Positions 9,228-56,008 of a DNA stretch of 64,000 bases are shown here, in pieces. The translations under genes and the position numbers were made by a program. This DNA is from Escherichia phage AV124. A model generated the notes under the pieces. It was not told the origin of the DNA and did no database searches. It worked only from the letters and a program-made list of their open reading frames with translations. The stretch is taken from sequence record OR352954; one strand, written 5' to 3'. The stretch's first letter is position 1. Each line of letters opens with the position of its first letter.

Positions 9228-9511
9228 TGAAACATATCCTACTGAAGAAGTGCAAACCTATAACCTACTGCAAATTCTGCAAAGCCATTGGTATACGCAG
9301 GCGTTGCACAGTTATGACGAAATACCAACCGCCGTGGGGACTGCGTGACTGGTACAAGCATTACGCCTGTGATGAACACAAACACCTGATTGAAGACCCC
9401 GACCCACGGGGAATCATGGAAGCTGCTGCAAAGAACCCTGCCCCACCACAAAAAGTTGCACGTGATGAGCACCACACAGAAGCTGACTATCAAACCTGGA
9501 TGAGGCTATAA
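9227..9511 (+). CDS. hypothetical Cys-containing protein
   Basis: ORF in array; CKFCK and CDEHKH motifs. Confidence 0.45.
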   Translation: MKHILLKKCKPITYCKFCKAIGIRRRCTVMTKYQPPWGLRDWYKHYACDEHKHLIEDPDPRGIMEAAAKNPAPPQKVARDEHHTEADYQTWMRL

Positions 9512-15453: not shown

Positions 15454-15696
15454 TTATTTTTTCAGAGTAATGATCGGGCGCTTGTCGCCCTCTTTGACGC
15501 CAGGATCTAACGTATCGCAGATCCCCACTTGCTCACCCTTTTTCAAAGTGTAGCTGTTTTCGTACACCTCGCAAGCTTGTTCGTCATCAAAAACTTTCTT
15601 TACAGTCCAATCACATTGTAATGACATTGAACTAACAGAAATGTGACAAGCTAATAAAATAAATCCGAACATGGTAGCCGCCTTAATGGGGCGCAA
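15454..15696 (-). CDS. small lipoprotein (predicted lipobox LLAC)
   Basis: N-terminus MRPIKAATMFGFILLAC: basic n-region, hydrophobic core, L-L-A-C lipobox; mature part about 63 aa. Confidence 0.5.
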   Translation of the reverse strand: MRPIKAATMFGFILLACHISVSSMSLQCDWTVKKVFDDEQACEVYENSYTLKKGEQVGICDTLDPGVKEGDKRPIITLKK

Positions 15697-15710
15697 GGCC
15701 CCGCTATTGA

Positions 15711-16034
15711 TTATTTGTTGATCTGGTTTGTCTGATTATAGATCCCATATTGAACACGGGACACGGTAACAGATTGAGGGAGTAAGCAACGAACACGATC
15801 CGCGCGGTTGTCATATTTTTTAATATGCGCCGGAGTATTGTTGCGGGTAAACTTAACACGCAAACGTAATTTATTTGGATCGCGGTCATCGATGCCGGTT
15901 ACCACACCGAAAGCGATTTGGCCATAGTTATGATAAACCATTTTACCCAGAAATTTTGATTCAAGATCGGCGATGTTAGATTTTACGTTTTGCATGTTGT
16001 TTACCTTTTTCAGAGTGGCGGTGAATTCCGCCAC
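15711..16034 (-). CDS. hypothetical protein
   Basis: ORF with SD-like AAAAAGG before ATG. Confidence 0.45.
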   Translation of the reverse strand: MAEFTATLKKVNNMQNVKSNIADLESKFLGKMVYHNYGQIAFGVVTGIDDRDPNKLRLRVKFTRNNTPAHIKKYDNRADRVRCLLPQSVTVSRVQYGIYNQTNQINK

Positions 16035-22531: not shown

Positions 22532-23174
22532 GCTGAGAATCCTTTTTATCTTCTTTTGTTTTGGCGGCTGCATCCAACTCTTCAGTATATTTCTTGATTT
22601 GAGCATCAAGATACTTAATGGTGCTATCAGCCAGTTGTTGTGTACGTGGTGACTCAACCACATTCTGACCTACATACGCTGCCAGCATCTTATAGGCCGT
22701 CTCTTTCTGCGGCATAAAGTTAGCGTACAGGATACCTAGGAAACATATAACCATGCCAAAGACTGCGATCTTACGTGGACCTTTGGTAACATCCTTTACC
22801 ACAACAGGTGTTGTTGATTGGCCTTCCTTCCGGGTTACTTTGTAGATTGTGGACTGCTTAATATCGTTGCTGGAGACCCTTCCATTCGGCAAGCGAACTC
22901 GAAGCGTATTATCACTGTTCCATACCGTAACGATTTCAATCGTATCCCCGGCCTTACATCCATTCCAGTCTTGATTAAGAATCAGGTTTTCACCTTCGAA
23001 GAACTGATACCCTAAGGCTGTACCATTCTTCTCAAGATCTTCATAAATCTTCTGACCGAAATAGCAACCGGCGTATGCGAGAGCAGAGATAAGCATCAGA
23101 GCAACCCAACCACCATAATTACCGTCTGTAGTCAGAACATCAATTACATAAATCAGAAAAGGCCATGAACCCAT
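22524..23174 (-). CDS. hypothetical membrane protein (two TM segments)
   Basis: Hydrophobic stretches near N-terminus and mid-protein; Lys-rich C-terminus. Confidence 0.5.
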   Translation of the reverse strand: MGSWPFLIYVIDVLTTDGNYGGWVALMLISALAYAGCYFGQKIYEDLEKNGTALGYQFFEGENLILNQDWNGCKAGDTIEIVTVWNSDNTLRVRLPNGRVSSNDIKQSTIYKVTRKEGQSTTPVVVKDVTKGPRKIAVFGMVICFLGILYANFMPQKETAYKMLAAYVGQNVVESPRTQQLADSTIKYLDAQIKKYTEELDAAAKTKEDKKDSQHD

Positions 23175-23199
23175 TTTGTAATCTCCTCTTAGGATAACT

Positions 23200-23460
23200 T
23201 TAATTAAGTGTTAAATTTCCAACAGTTTCAATGAAGCCGAAGGGCATAGAGAATACCTTCACCATATAAATCTTGTCCTTACCATCTTCATAGTAAGGCA
23301 CAACTACAACATCATCAGCTCCCAGAGGAAGCATAGTCATAATCATACCAGAATCTACAACGTATTCAAGCACAGCTTCTTTGGTGGCAGGAATTTCTTT
23401 CTCTGTTTGTTTGCTTTCCAACAGGCCACCACGGTGTTGACGAATACGGATCGTTTTCAT
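23200..23460 (-). CDS. hypothetical protein
   Basis: ORF in minus-strand array. Confidence 0.45.
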   Translation of the reverse strand: MKTIRIRQHRGGLLESKQTEKEIPATKEAVLEYVVDSGMIMTMLPLGADDVVVVPYYEDGKDKIYMVKVFSMPFGFIETVGNLTLN

Positions 23461-23777
23461 TTGTTGTCGGCCTCGCGCCGCCCCCAGTTAAGTCGTTCAT
23501 AAGATTCACTGTCGCCCATGCCTCCATCACATAAGCGAACAAGTTCGCACTTCCACACACATCTAACACCCGTAAACGGGTTAGCTCATGGCTAATCCAC
23601 TTGTGGATGACTGAAGTGATGAATCACTTCCTCTTGAAACTAACTATACACTAACTAAACCATAGATCAAGATCTTTTTATAAAGATCTATGTTTTATGT
23701 TTTTAAGATCTTATGTGTATTATTTTATATATGTATTCATGTGCAAAATTTGCATGACACGAGACGCAAAATTTGCA
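23461..23777. promoter_or_regulatory. operator-like palindromes in intergenic region
   Basis: 32-bp near-perfect palindrome CATAGATCAAGATCTTTTTATAAAGATCTATG (23661-23692); direct repeat GCAAAATTTGCAT at 23743 and 23766. Confidence 0.4.
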
Positions 23778-24056
23778 TCACAAGACGGTGTACTCATACG
23801 TACTCATCCCTCTGCGTTCTGTAGATAGATACCCTAGTGCCACGAGGTTTTTTATGGATGTACTGATTGACCTTTCAGACACACCCGTAGCTTCACTAAT
23901 CGTTTTATAACTAGCAAAGTATTTCTTCCCTTTTGTCTCTAAGTATCCTGCCTTGTACTTTATGTGGAGCAGGACACGAAGATCTGTGCATGACAGGTTC
24001 TTATCATGCAGCTCTTTTTCGTCACAAGCTACCCACTTCTCACTCTTTTTTGGCAT
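23778..24056 (-). CDS. winged-helix DNA-binding protein (putative transcriptional regulator)
   Basis: ASYKTISEATGVSERSISTSIKNLVALGYL is a typical HTH recognition pattern; start trimmed to ATG after GGAG. Confidence 0.45.
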   Translation of the reverse strand: MPKKSEKWVACDEKELHDKNLSCTDLRVLLHIKYKAGYLETKGKKYFASYKTISEATGVSERSISTSIKNLVALGYLSTERRGMSTYEYTVL

Positions 24057-24450
24057 CCAAGTATTTCTCCAAATGAGTGAGTACAACCCCTTGGGCATAC
24101 TCTTGAGATGCATCATTGTGGTGAAGAACAGCCAGATCACATCCAAGTTTGTGCAAACTCCTCTCGAATGGAGACAAGTGTGTCATCATAACTTCGACCA
24201 GACTAAGCTCTTCTTCTGTGATGTGGAGGGGATCATCCGTGAAATCCCTGGAGATGAGAATCTCTCTCTCACCTCCTTCTCCGTGACCATAGACCTCGAC
24301 AATCCTCCTGTTACAGAAAATTTCGTACTGATAGCCGTTCCAATCTTGACCGTCTTGGGCTTCAAAGTTCACAATGAGGCAACAACCAAGCCCCAACAAG
24401 AGTACCTGGAAATCCAAATTGTGAACAATTTTTTTATTTAAAGTGTTCAT
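24040..24450 (-). CDS. hypothetical acidic protein
   Basis: ORF in minus-strand array. Confidence 0.4.
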   Translation of the reverse strand: MNTLNKKIVHNLDFQVLLLGLGCCLIVNFEAQDGQDWNGYQYEIFCNRRIVEVYGHGEGGEREILISRDFTDDPLHITEEELSLVEVMMTHLSPFERSLHKLGCDLAVLHHNDASQEYAQGVVLTHLEKYLDAKKE

Positions 24451-25873
24451 CTAAGTCCACAGCTTTTCCAAATGGTGGAATCCAACCCTTGCGCCCACCG
24501 CAGATAACCCAGAGAGTGTTGTACTTACGCCCCCAGCTTGAGCCACGATGTCTCAGGTCCTCTATGTAACCATCTGTGAAGATTATAACCTCTTTTGCCT
24601 TAGGAATAAACTCATCGATGTACTCAAAAGCACATGCAGCAGTTGTCCCACCAGTCGATGTAACTCTGTAATCCAGAATTTCCTTTATGTTATCCTGTGT
24701 GTACACGTTGACGTTGCCAACTTGGGTTGACCAACAGAACAATGTGATACGGAAACATTGGTACAGGGTGCTCAAAGCGATTATCTCATTGAAGATACGT
24801 GTCATTGTTTGACGAGAGATAGAACCTGAAACGTCAAAACCGATTACAATATCAACAGTCTCTGTTCTTTTTCTGCCAGGCATAACCATGAACTGTTTCT
24901 TAGTTAGAGCGCCGTGATCACGAAGGACTTTTGTCATTCCTCCTGATCGACGACCTAAGACCCGATAAGTACGGTCTGATTTAACACGAGAAATCATTCG
25001 CTGCTTAATGATTTGCAGGTAATTAATCTTCGGTTTACCTTTTTGTGCGATTAATTCTCTGGCTTCTTTTGGCCCTTCACCACCTGCGGCTTTCATAGCA
25101 GCGTCAATCATGTCCTCAGACCAAGACATATCCTCATCTTCCTGATCAGCAGACTTCTGTGGGTGTGGGTCCGTATACCCCAGGATGTCAAGGTCTTTAT
25201 CATAATCCCCTATGTGCGCTCCCAGCGGCTTACCTTCACCGTCACCAATCTCTTCCGGTAGTAGAGCATAAATCTCTTCAGCCGTTTTTCCCTCATATTG
25301 GTAATCGCAATAACAGTAAGCAAGGAAACCAAATTCTTTTGACTTATCAAACACTTGTCGATGAGTGAACCATTTCAAACTCTCGGCTTTCTGGCCCAAC
25401 TCCTTGACTAGGTCAGTATTGATATAGTGATCAGCGGCGATGTTGAAACGTTTGCGATCAAATGTTTTCCCACGAGACATGTGGTCGTTGGTGACATGGC
25501 GGACCTCATGCATCATGATGAATACAATTTCTTTCATGGTCTTTTGACGATAAAATACATTGATGTACTCTTTGTAATCATCTTTTTGCTGTTGTGTCAT
25601 CATCGGATGCTTGTCAATACGAGCAAAGACTTTTTTCTTGCGATCAGCAGGCATACCCATAATGAACTCTGGGTTAAAGTATAGATTGCGATGATCAGTT
25701 GCTGCGGTTGGAAGCCATGCACAGTCAACTATCAGCGGCATACCGCTTAATAATGTCCCATAGAATGGTCGATTAGTAAGTAAAGCGATGCGGGCAGACT
25801 GAACTCTCTTCAGTGCTTCATCAGCCAGTTCCATAATGCTTTCTTTTTCATCAGTATACATTCTTATCTCCAA
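24434..25873 (-). CDS. vWA domain protein with N-terminal HExxH metallopeptidase-like domain
   Basis: HExxH motif (MMHEVRH) in N-terminal half; MIDAS-like DVSGSIS in C-terminal half. Confidence 0.6.
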   Translation of the reverse strand: MEIRMYTDEKESIMELADEALKRVQSARIALLTNRPFYGTLLSGMPLIVDCAWLPTAATDHRNLYFNPEFIMGMPADRKKKVFARIDKHPMMTQQQKDDYKEYINVFYRQKTMKEIVFIMMHEVRHVTNDHMSRGKTFDRKRFNIAADHYINTDLVKELGQKAESLKWFTHRQVFDKSKEFGFLAYCYCDYQYEGKTAEEIYALLPEEIGDGEGKPLGAHIGDYDKDLDILGYTDPHPQKSADQEDEDMSWSEDMIDAAMKAAGGEGPKEARELIAQKGKPKINYLQIIKQRMISRVKSDRTYRVLGRRSGGMTKVLRDHGALTKKQFMVMPGRKRTETVDIVIGFDVSGSISRQTMTRIFNEIIALSTLYQCFRITLFCWSTQVGNVNVYTQDNIKEILDYRVTSTGGTTAACAFEYIDEFIPKAKEVIIFTDGYIEDLRHRGSSWGRKYNTLWVICGGRKGWIPPFGKAVDLDEHFK

Positions 25874-53967: not shown

Positions 53968-55056
53968 ATGACGATTACTCGCGGCCTTATCTTCGGGAAG
54001 TTTGCACCCCTGACCAACGGGCATATTGAATTCATTCGCCAGGCGGCTTCGCAGGTTAGTGCTCTGTACCTGTTCCTGTCATATGATCAGAAATTCGTTG
54101 ATGCACAACCAGAATGGATTCGTCCAAAGCTGGGGCTTGCTGATCGTTATCGTGACCTGCTGGATGTTATTGCCGATGAGGGACTTGACAACGTGAAGGT
54201 AGACTACGTTGATGAGTCGAATATCCCAGGATACCCTGAAGGCAGTGCTGCCTATGCAAAACTGATCCGTGAAAAGCAACCGTTCGTTAAGTACGATTTT
54301 GCTTTCTCTTCTGAGCCGGAGTATGAGTCTTACTTCAGTGAGTTCTTCCCTGAAGCGAAGCATGTAGTTATCGACGCAGAACGTAAAGCTGTTCCTATCT
54401 CAGCCACGATGATCCGTAATGATCCGTACAACAACTTCTACAACCTAGCGTGGCCTGCACGTAAGCGCTTCATGAAGAAGGTTGCCATCATTGGTGTTGA
54501 GAGTACGGGCAAGACAACCCTGACAAAACATCTGGCGCATACCTTCGGTGCTGGTTGGATTCCTGAGATCGGACGGCTTATCTGTGAGCGTGAATATCAC
54601 TCCAGTGAGTTCGCAATGTCTCGTGAAGACTACCTGCGTATCGCTATGGAGCACCGCCTGAAGGAGATGGAGTTGGCTGGTTGGGGTGATCGTGGGGTTA
54701 TGTTCTCTGACACCACAAACCTGATCACACACTTCTCTGGTGTTTGTGCTGATAAGATCGACTACGCAGACCTGTTGTTCCGGACACTAAGCCGTGAAGA
54801 GAGCTACAACTTCTATGACCTGTTCCTGCTCCTCACACCAGAGGTTCCGTGGGTTGCTGATCCTCTTCGCTTGCAGGATACACCAGAGAAACGTAAAGAA
54901 ACCCATTCTTTGCTTGACACAATGATCAGAGCATCTTACGATACAAGCAAGGTGGTGGTTATCTCCGGCAGTGATTACGAAGAGCGTACTCAGAGAGCTG
55001 AAGAAGCTGTCCGTAAATTGCTGAATATCAAAGGAGAACAAGATGGATCAAACTAA
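53968..55056 (+). CDS. nadR: bifunctional NMN adenylyltransferase / ribosylnicotinamide kinase (NadR-like, no HTH domain)
   Basis: N-terminal nucleotidyltransferase signature GKFAPLTNGHIEFI (GxFxPxHxGH); C-terminal P-loop GVESTGKTT; layout as NadR catalytic domains. Confidence 0.75.
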   Translation: MTITRGLIFGKFAPLTNGHIEFIRQAASQVSALYLFLSYDQKFVDAQPEWIRPKLGLADRYRDLLDVIADEGLDNVKVDYVDESNIPGYPEGSAAYAKLIREKQPFVKYDFAFSSEPEYESYFSEFFPEAKHVVIDAERKAVPISATMIRNDPYNNFYNLAWPARKRFMKKVAIIGVESTGKTTLTKHLAHTFGAGWIPEIGRLICEREYHSSEFAMSREDYLRIAMEHRLKEMELAGWGDRGVMFSDTTNLITHFSGVCADKIDYADLLFRTLSREESYNFYDLFLLLTPEVPWVADPLRLQDTPEKRKETHSLLDTMIRASYDTSKVVVISGSDYEERTQRAEEAVRKLLNIKGEQDGSN

Positions 55057-55468
55057 TCTGGCAATTCTTCAGTTCTTGAAAGAGGATTTGGAGAGAACCG
55101 AGGCATGGACTTTCCACTATGTTATTGAGGAGGCCTTAGACCTCAGTCCGATGGTGGTGGACATCTCCCTCACGCAACTGGAGCAGGGTAAGATGATCAC
55201 TCGCTGCCTGTGTGGTTGCAATGGCATTATGATTGCCCCTGGTGGGTATGAGGTGCTTCCAAAGCCTGAAAAGAAAGAGCAGATTCTGGTCTGGAAAACA
55301 GCACAAGGAGATGTTGTCAGGTTGACTCATATGGCAGATGATCATCTCCGTAACGCGATGGTATGGCTTCTGGAGCAGCCCTATTTGAGCGAAGAATACG
55401 AAGGTGTTGGTATAACGACATGGCTCAAGGAGATGTCAATTGAACTGCACAGGAGATTTTCACTATAA
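55043..55468 (+). CDS. hypothetical protein
   Basis: ORF overlapping nadR stop. Confidence 0.45.
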   Translation: MDQTNLAILQFLKEDLERTEAWTFHYVIEEALDLSPMVVDISLTQLEQGKMITRCLCGCNGIMIAPGGYEVLPKPEKKEQILVWKTAQGDVVRLTHMADDHLRNAMVWLLEQPYLSEEYEGVGITTWLKEMSIELHRRFSL

Positions 55469-55662
55469 TGGCGATCAAAGTAATCTCCGAAGGTACTCCG
55501 TTTACGGCAACGTGTAAGAGTTGCAGGTCTGTGGTTGAATACAATTACACGGATACCTATGTATATTCCTACACTGTTGCTCGTGGAATGCGGGTAGGTC
55601 ATGGTGCGTACCGCTGCATCACCTGTCCTGTGTGCTCATCAAGGATCAGGCATAATGGCTAA
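55468..55662 (+). CDS. hypothetical zinc-ribbon protein
   Basis: CKSC and CITCPVC motifs. Confidence 0.4.
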   Translation: MAIKVISEGTPFTATCKSCRSVVEYNYTDTYVYSYTVARGMRVGHGAYRCITCPVCSSRIRHNG

Positions 55663-56008
55663 GGTGCTCAACTTCTACCACATTGGTAAAGTGATCCCTG
55701 AAAATGCCGAATACATGGGGCGAGCAATGCCCCATCTAGGCCTGAAGCAATCTAAATTCGCTAACCCATATAAGTTGTCGAAGGATGAGCCTCGTGGAGC
55801 CACCATTGAGCGCTATCGCGTGTGGTTGTGGCAACAGATCCGTTCTGGGAAAATTACTATTCAAGATCTTCTTGACTTGGATGGTAAAGACCTTGTATGC
55901 TTCTGTAAACAGCCGAACAAAGAGGTGGCATGTCATTGTGATGTGATACTTGCGGCAATCGAATGGGCAAAACAGAGGAAGACAAATGGCAATTCATGCA
56001 AAAAGTAA
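55655..56008 (+). CDS. hypothetical protein (conserved Cys/His motif)
   Basis: Track ORF trimmed to ATG; VCFCKQP...CHCDVILAAIEW motif. Confidence 0.4.
   Translation: MAKVLNFYHIGKVIPENAEYMGRAMPHLGLKQSKFANPYKLSKDEPRGATIERYRVWLWQQIRSGKITIQDLLDLDGKDLVCFCKQPNKEVACHCDVILAAIEWAKQRKTNGNSCKK

Follow-up and report, generated by a model that had tools for sequence, protein, structure and literature searches.

A winged-helix gene and two probable cognate dyads form a mosaic cassette beside a conserved AT-rich core, a candidate replication origin, in Mydovirus and related phages

The 64,000-nt stretch of Escherichia phage AV124 analyzed here (sequence record OR352954; hereafter the window, to which all positions refer unless another genome is named) contains a run of leftward genes with a single sizeable gap, a 317-bp spacer at 23461-23777. 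As an earlier note on this DNA had correctly placed it, the spacer lies between the gene for a 92-residue winged helix-turn-helix (wHTH) protein (23778-24056, minus strand; stop codon 23778-23780) and the next leftward gene (23200-23460, minus strand; 86 amino acids, PHROG 8785). The spacer and the wHTH gene are the subject of this report. Every gene in the surrounding 1.1 kb is on the minus strand, and the wHTH gene overlaps its upstream neighbor within an operon. Over the same 1.1 kb the window is 99.1% identical to Raoultella phage Ro1 (Vequintavirinae, genus Mydovirus) and 93-98% identical to many Klebsiella phages, and on this sequence comparison the window is a Mydovirus of the Vequintavirinae.

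Two repeated features in the spacer had been reported in the earlier note, a duplicated GCAAAATTTGCAT at 23743 and 23766 and a 32-bp palindrome, CATAGATCAAGATCTTTTTATAAAGATCTATG, at 23661-23692; the coordinates are right, and both copies of the duplicated element are exact. Dyad symmetry is seen within the element (TGCAAA-A-TTTGCA), whose two copies, at 23742-23754 and 23765-23777, are 23 bp apart. Candidate cognate site 1 (23765-23777, TGCAAATTTTGCG on the minus strand) begins at the base after the wHTH stop codon, and candidate cognate site 2 (23742-23754) reads TGCAAAATTTGCA. Dyads of this type, referred to below as type A, correspond to TGCAAAWTTTGCA, or, with variation, to TGCAAA(A/T)TTTGC(A/G). 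The best direct repeat and the best inverted repeat of the spacer are both 13 nt long, a length matched by none of 300 dinucleotide-preserving shuffles (shuffle maximum 12), and a pair of type A sites is found only at this locus in the 145.8-kb Ro1 genome. Elsewhere in the window, an exact extra copy of TGCAAATTTTGCA is present at 81-93 (expected ~0.003 per window) and one-mismatch copies are present at 9269 and 62569. All three read as lying in coding sequence and are treated as chance, and a regulon based on them was rejected; the copy at 81-93 is probably fortuitous because Ro1 has no exact copy outside the locus.

The relationship between the dyads and the neighboring protein emerges from comparison among phages. 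A tblastn search detected the wHTH protein in 58 phage records, which split sharply into those with 90-100% identity and those with only 30-43% identity. The DNA past the wHTH stop codon was read in 26 loci from GenBank, IMG/VR, metagenomes and assemblies; the metagenome and IMG/VR scans contributed only 8 and 10 loci, mostly from the same phages, and a wider wHTH alignment was too divergent for scanning. In all allele classes among the 26 loci a repeat pair abuts or overlaps the wHTH stop codon, and each of five divergent alleles has its own pair at the same place, mostly dyad-symmetric and 22-24 bp apart. Allele A (recognition helix SERSISTSIKNL; the window, Ro1, PVP-SE1 and loci L011, L022, L024 and L026) is accompanied by two copies of TGCAAAWTTTGCR at a spacing of 23, and allele A' (51% identical; recognition helix SERSMSRIVDHL; L021) by two copies of TGCAATTTTGGCR at a spacing of 24. 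Allele B (helix SERTVRRSMEKL; Mydo, FENT2, KE22, SalP219, L016-19 and L030-31) has GGWCA-N4-TGWCC twice, spaced 23, and allele C (recognition helix SPRSVQRSLKNL; 4MG, GAP31, SPLA5a and L027-29) has TGACAAAAACG twice, likewise spaced 23. In allele D (recognition helix TERTVRRAVDSL; Erwinia phage Hena1) the repeat is TGACA-N4-TGTCM, present twice at a spacing of 22, and the stop codon lies inside site 1. The 11-mer TGACAAAAACG of type C has exactly two copies in the 147,940 bp of GAP31, both at this locus. Alleles B, C and D have related recognition helices and share a common GACA core in their sites, while allele A is distinct in both helix and site.

Thus, the duplicated element is retained with this wHTH allele and swapped for other repeats elsewhere, in agreement with the earlier suggestion that it serves the neighboring regulator. 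Because the repeat pairs co-vary with the wHTH allele, the two TGCAAA(A/T)TTTGC(A/G) dyads are, with high probability, the cognate binding sites of the adjacent 92-residue protein, which probably binds as one dimer per dyad.

Sequence identity along the locus shows how far the exchanged unit extends. Between the window and Mydo, a phage of the same genus, identity is 80-98% upstream of the wHTH gene, 22-62% from the wHTH start to ~85 nt past its stop, and then 100% again; the upstream neighbor protein is 82-98% identical where the wHTH protein is only 38% identical. In PVP-SE1, from another genus, the upstream neighbor is only 40% identical and the wHTH protein is 91% identical, and good nucleotide alignment to the window is limited to -260 to +135 (68-90%). 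The sharp boundaries and the discordant identity of the neighbors indicate that the gene, the sites and ~50 bp of AT-rich DNA travel as one unit, which on the evidence of these alignments is a self-contained specificity cassette exchanged horizontally among Mydovirus, Seunavirus and Henunavirus phages.

The 32-bp palindrome at 23661-23692 does not follow the wHTH allele. The earlier note had called it near-perfect, yet only 10 of its 16 pairs are complementary, and it is really two overlapping inverted repeats made from AGATCT units: an outer one (TAAACCATAGATC / GATCTATGTTTTA; 13-nt arms, 12 of 13 paired, 16-nt spacer) and an inner one (AGATCTTT-TTAT-AAAGATCT; perfect 8-nt arms) with a different center. 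PVP-SE1, 4MG and L022 do not keep its palindromic form. Beside the unrelated alleles of Mydo and FENT2 it is unchanged, whereas in PVP-SE1, which has the same wHTH allele (91%), it is degenerate, and L022 (same allele, 84%) has a AATTAATT pair in place of the AGATCT pair. Since the AGATCT palindrome is present or absent independently of the allele, and is lost from related phages that carry the same gene, it is not the operator of this wHTH protein, and the connection that the earlier note had drawn between the two was abandoned. The comparison places it in a separate, allele-independent conserved core, a putative unwinding/promoter element. The AATTAATT palindromes of L022 (a Logan SRR33991139 contig) lie ~70-105 nt past the wHTH stop and may be another swapped recognition element for some other factor.

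The allele-independent core was delimited with a profile of 13 loci as a conserved non-coding block at 23609-23711. Its identity to other genera, 77-86% (query 184-286), is the strongest of the region, and the flanking genes are barely alignable. When the 13-locus nhmmer profile was run against Ro1, it matched only 15620-15722 (equivalent to window 23609-23711) with an expect value (E) of 9.9e-24, the next best match having an E of 3.4; a recurring promoter class was rejected on the ground that the profile matches only the locus itself. A consensus scan predicts a sigma70-like promoter in the block, TTGATC-16-TATAGT at 23643-23670 on the minus strand, directed leftward towards gene 23200-23460 and preceded by an upstream A-tract, AAAAAGATC. 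Its hexamers and their spacing are conserved in the 13 loci, and the conserved sequence is much longer than the hexamers themselves, taking in the spacer and reaching into the leader. The A-tract and the -35 hexamer of this predicted promoter make up the palindrome's right arm. By sequence, the A-tract and the -35 and -10 hexamers resemble the UP-element early promoter of Certrevirus, for which the consensus in CB7 is AAAA(N4)TGTTGAC(N17)TATAAT (PMC7344957), and the spacing is within 16-19 bp.

Three GATCT-led T-rich 13-mers with starts at 23671, 23685 and 23707 (23671-23719, plus strand) resemble the oriC repeat GATCTnTTnTTTT, agreeing with it at 8, 9 and 8 of its 11 specified positions, respectively, although T-rich DNA yields matches of this kind readily. 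A perfect GATCTTTTGTTTT, agreeing at 11 of 11 positions, is present in PVP-SE1. The AGATCT unit is the single-strand ATP-DnaA box of the Escherichia coli unwinding element (PMC4285127). Four GATC sequences within 50 bp form the densest cluster in the window, a density that random placement equals in 48% of cases (P ~0.48). Ro1 has a methylase gene at 55,032-55,883 (gp111, dpnM) that is annotated as DpnIIA-like, a type that we take to be GATC-specific, and the conserved GATC/AGATCT repeats are for this reason probably methylated by the phage itself.

Adjoining the dyads is an AT-rich tract (23691-23741) that travels with the cassette and carries two -10-like hexamers on the minus strand, TAAAAT (23727 to 23722) and AATAAT (23724 to 23719). 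Of all 100-bp segments in the window, the one starting at 23637 has the lowest GC content (20%), and the tract forms part of it. In Ro1, no other 60- or 100-bp duplex anywhere in the genome is as unstable as the one beside the dyads (z 4.5-4.7), and the second least stable segment is found at a further locus, described below as locus 2. The same two loci are again the top two in GAP31, in reverse order (z 6.4 and 5.3).

Locus 2 contains a second, paralogous module and is situated outside the window, at the major divergent junction, at ~74.0 kb in Ro1 (NC_048682, 73,840-74,534; 23840-24534 of L034) and at ~79.5 kb in GAP31 (NC_019400, 79,338-79,933; L039). Ro1 gp149 and GAP31_179, encoded there, are paralogues of the wHTH protein (BLASTP 9e-8; hhalign 96%, E 1.4e-9). 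Upstream of the paralogue gene are two repeats 23-25 bp apart, GGGAATAATTAG in Ro1 and TATCAATTTGAG in GAP31, each unique in its own genome. Locus 2 also has an AT tract and an AGATCT/T-rich core that aligns with the core of locus 1, including GATCT-type 13-mers in tandem at 13-bp spacing, consensus matches that again come easily in T-rich DNA. Both loci run from GATCT repeats through the AT tract and the two sites to the wHTH gene, and the gene is inverted at locus 2, so that transcription crosses the two modules in opposite directions. Locus 2 is mosaic too, with two alleles that assort independently of the locus-1 alleles; over both loci there are seven allele-site pairs, five at locus 1 and two at locus 2, with repeats spaced 22-25 bp. 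In allele X of locus 2, a AAGTTAGT pair is related to the tandem 11-nt repeats ACTAACTATAC / ACTAACTAAAC at window 23639-23660, which cover part of the spacer in the predicted locus-1 promoter together with its -10 hexamer.

The 92-residue protein belongs to Pfam HTH_36 (PF13730; E 5.8e-11, 42.5 bits against a gathering cut-off of 25), and the Hena1 and L021 alleles likewise score above the threshold of this family. It matches PHROG 8102 at 2e-30, covering only positions 12-105 of the 337-position profile. Eight of its 12 PHROG relatives are replication initiators or DnaD-like loaders, the alignments running mostly to the N-terminal domains of O-like and DnaD-like initiators, and one match is a transcriptional regulator. 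An AlphaFold2 model built on a 7-sequence alignment (predicted local distance difference test score, pLDDT, 87) has the classic winged-helix topology, H-beta-H-H-beta-beta. Among the top 50 Foldseek matches listed for this model, almost all are winged-helix domains; the highest query template modeling (TM) scores, 0.63-0.69, belong to the N-terminal domains of RepA_N initiators (4pt7 and 5kbj), and AspA, CodY and MecI are also among the matches listed. Large protein searches returned 3 clusters and 15 representatives at E up to 0.001, and this small number of relatives in two large searches indicates that the family is narrow. The Ro1 orthologue is named 'replication initiation protein' in RefSeq, a name that the FENT2 record, annotated with pharokka, links to PHROG 8102. 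On a 92-residue wHTH protein this label is a transferred annotation, for which a structural context is now given.

Iteron origins are recognized in general by repeated sites at the initiator gene and an adjacent unwinding element rich in A and T, and judged by sequence the locus has both. We tentatively propose, at slightly less than an even chance, that the module of initiator sites and unwinding element is a replication origin, with a second one at locus 2. The cassette would then constitute the initiator-binding half of an origin-like element. Bound wHTH protein would sit next to the DNA that melts most readily in the whole genome, with its GATCT-led T-rich repeats of the unwinding type, and binding would help to open the tract, aided by transcription that passes through it or starts nearby. 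The T7-gp4-like primase/helicase of the phage could then load on the opened DNA. Enzymes of this type are able to load on opened DNA without a dedicated loader, and a bare DNA-binding initiator would therefore be sufficient. The paralogous module elsewhere in the genome would be the second origin. In our assessment the anatomy of the locus points to an origin-like element at least as strongly as to the control of downstream early genes, which the earlier note had put forward.

Systems in which initiator sites adjoin an unwinding element are already known, and several precedents can be compared with the locus. In lambdoid O/ori pairs, site specificity co-varies with the DNA-binding domain. As read from its record, oriLambda has dyad iterons 20-24 bp apart from center to center, followed by an A/T-rich tract and then a palindrome, and locus 1 is alike. 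The lambda O N-terminus is placed in HTH_36 by HHpred (PMC5509034), the family to which the wHTH domain is assigned, and in both systems the sites are at the initiator gene. Unlike oriLambda, the locus has two sites rather than four, and these are just outside the gene rather than inside it. Unlike lambda O, the protein is a 92-residue winged helix only, lacks a C-terminal P-binding domain and has no demonstrable homology to O; and unlike lambda, the phage itself is a virulent 146-kb myovirus with its own primase/helicase.

T4 is closer in lifestyle. T4 oriF and oriG combine a factor-dependent promoter with an A+T-rich unwinding element, and T4 origins are located near points of transcriptional divergence (PMC3016281). 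The phages considered here are likewise virulent myoviruses with a putative factor site at a promoter-like element and ~50-100 bp of AT-rich unwinding-type DNA, and they would resemble T4 further in having several origins per genome near transcriptional divergence and small early genes beside an iteron-bearing origin (PMC3016281). Unlike in T4, there is no homology to MotA or RepEB, any R-loop or promoter activity is hypothetical here, and relatives exchange the specificity cassettes, something not described for T4.

As in iteron origins and oriC, the candidate initiator sites flank an unstable AT-rich region with GATCT-led T-rich repeats (PMC4285127), but the sites are only two, and agreement with the 13-mer consensus is easily reached in T-rich DNA. 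Unlike oriC, the locus has no good conserved DnaA 9-mer box, the sole candidate being the DnaA-box-like TCATCCACA (8 of 9 positions, minus strand), which is carried by the palindrome ATCCACTTGTGGAT (23595-23610) in a stretch missing from PVP-SE1 and 4MG. The repressor-operator immunity cassettes found in lambdoid phages offer a further parallel, a protein and its adjacent sites being exchanged as a mosaic unit with sharp boundaries and several specificities per group; in contrast to these, the present cassette is found in a virulent phage, its sites are not at its own promoter, the protein belongs to another fold family and the adjacent tract is extremely AT-rich. The features that would set the module apart as a variant are the stand-alone 92-residue wHTH protein, the presence of exactly two dyads at the stop codon, the two paralogous modules per genome and the exchange of specificity halves between genera of virulent phages. 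Our searches of full-text papers turned up neither a description of these modules nor any origin reported for this phage group.

Several observations weigh against an origin. There are only two sites. A -10-like hexamer 51-56 nt past the stop codon in alleles A, B and C, together with the sigma70-like promoter in the conserved block, means that an operator/promoter reading stays viable. The GATC cluster alone is not significant, and AT-rich DNA with GATC is also typical of the regions upstream of promoters. The protein ends after the wing, at residue 92, with no further domain for the recruitment of a helicase or loader. The Foldseek matches have weak E-values (2e-3 and worse), and repressors and centromere binders are among the best of them. 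The Phage_rep_O family (PF04492) scores the protein at 14.6 bits against a cut-off of 28.7, which leaves it outside the family, and an hhalign comparison of the wHTH family profile with lambda O gave only a spurious 20-column match (probability 0.4%); homology to lambda O was rejected on these two results. GC skew tracks the direction of transcription, with no switch at 23.7 kb and a minimum at ~26-27 kb at a divergent junction, and was discarded for origin calling because it follows gene orientation only. In rV5, too, GC skew follows transcription, and skew analysis could not define an origin (PMC3606486). Finally, the modules are not universal in the subfamily: rV5 lacks both, and neither its syntenic position nor its ORF81/82 divergent junction, taken as the counterpart of locus 2, has a wHTH gene or a comparable spacer.

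The main alternative is local transcription control, which we consider possible, though somewhat less likely than an origin. The wHTH protein, made early, would bind the two dyads past its own stop codon and repress, road-block or activate transcription into the downstream early genes, its target being either transcription that reads through from the wHTH operon or a weak promoter with a -10 element ~51-56 nt past the stop; the conserved TTGATC-16-TATAGT with its A-tract would be a constitutive early promoter of the next genes. The wHTH fold is common to repressors (MarR, ArsR, and the MecI and CodY matches), and the one PHROG match to a transcriptional regulator is in line with such a role. 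On the minus strand, a consensus scan finds a promoter-like TTTGCA-17-AATAAT that overlaps site 2, and alleles A, B and C have a TATAAT, CATAAT or TAAAAT at +51-56; how far site 2 lies from the -10-like hexamer nevertheless varies by allele (14, 5, 8 and 17 bp), and types B and C have no conserved -35 element. No terminator was found separating the sites from the wHTH gene, free swapping would suit a self-contained repressor cassette, which does not depend on a co-adapted partner, and Vequintavirinae depend on host sigma70 promoters (PMC3606486, PMC7344957).

Autoregulation, as proposed in the earlier note, is unlikely in its classical form at locus 1 because the dyads follow the wHTH stop codon instead of lying at the promoter of the gene, which is itself inside an operon. 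In allele X of locus 2, repeats 2 and 3 flank a TTGACA-17-TAGCTT promoter, with repeat 3 also overlapping the ribosome-binding site, an arrangement compatible with autoregulation. Transcription control does not account for a module order that is the same at both loci despite opposite directions of transcription, and it gives no reason why the modules should be the two least stable duplex segments in two genomes. The nearest profile relatives of the protein, moreover, are mainly initiator domains.

Some other role at the DNA level, as a pac-like site for the initiation of packaging or as a partition or anchoring site bound by a centromere-type wHTH protein, appears improbable. The pac site of P1 has clustered GATC hexamers, the top Foldseek matches include the centromere-binding wHTH protein AspA, with TubR among the matches listed, and the site pair is unique and adjoins its own gene; these fold matches are, on the other side, weak and generic. 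The first base of several database records (FENT2, vB_Kpn_K54_rec1-6, VLCpiM5b and 18-India) falls within 0.1-2.7 kb of locus 1; submitters set such start points arbitrarily, and the ones here may be no more than that, or they may mark termini or assembly breaks close to the AT-rich tract. The presence of two paralogous modules in each genome speaks against either role. For packaging, the locus is far from the terminase gene (89.2 kb in Ro1), and the protein lacks the oligomerization domain typical of small terminases; for partition, there is no obvious need in a virulent phage. That the repeats are chance or relic sequence without function is highly improbable: AT-rich low-complexity DNA makes short repeats easier and the GATC cluster alone is not significant, but no shuffle reached either repeat, the motifs are unique in their genomes, and each of the five locus-1 and two locus-2 alleles comes with distinct paired repeats in the equivalent position, 22-25 bp apart.

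The remaining features of the spacer lie downstream of the predicted promoter. Just beyond it is an inverted repeat, GAAGTGAT-GA-ATCACTTC (23613-23630), the stem of which is kept between phages while the loop varies from 2 to 17 nt; in the hairpin GAAGTGAT-NN-ATCACTTC the two central bases are inverted between the window and Ro1 (TC vs GA on the minus strand). The rest of the leader (23461-23608, minus strand) has short palindromes at 23535-23548, 23568-23581 and 23595-23608 and a GC-rich element before the next start codon. The palindromes at 23568-23581 and 23595-23608 are in a stretch carried by the window, Ro1 and Mydo and missing from PVP-SE1 and 4MG. The 183-nt putative leader folds no better than its shuffles (z -0.85), and a structured leader RNA was rejected on this basis; an Rfam scan of 23150-24100 at E up to 1 gave two sub-threshold chance matches only. 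By reading of the sequences, the small open reading frames (ORFs) in the leader are not conserved between phages. A short upstream ORF (23457-23558, minus strand) ends in an ATGA that overlaps the start codon of gene 23200-23460. The GC-rich stretch GGGGGCGGCGCGAGGCCGA is conserved between genera and in 4MG matches the 5' end of a real gene; this may be a remnant or a translational-coupling device.

Two RefSeq labels on the opposite side of the wHTH gene look wrong. The product of 24040-24450, a 136-residue early protein, is called 'tail protein' via PHROG 6790, and that of 24434-25873, a 479-residue DUF2201 metallopeptidase/VWA protein, is called 'HNH endonuclease'.

Taken further, the origin reading would give Seunavirus, Mydovirus and Henunavirus phages two origins, each with a stand-alone wHTH initiator, two private dyads and a shared GATCT/AT-rich unwinding core, the initiator and site halves being interchangeable specificity cassettes that recombine between genera. 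We hold this general picture tentatively, as somewhat less probable than its opposite; if true, it would bring a plasmid-like incompatibility logic into virulent phages. The alleles themselves, at least five at locus 1 and two of the paralogue at locus 2, each with a defined motif, constitute a natural specificity-swap series that is useful for winged-helix recognition codes and for orthogonal protein-DNA pairs. Phages of the rV5-like group are widely used in phage-therapy work on Klebsiella, Salmonella and Cronobacter, and for them the analysis provides two precise candidate origin loci, at 23.6-23.8 kb in the window and at ~74 kb in Ro1.

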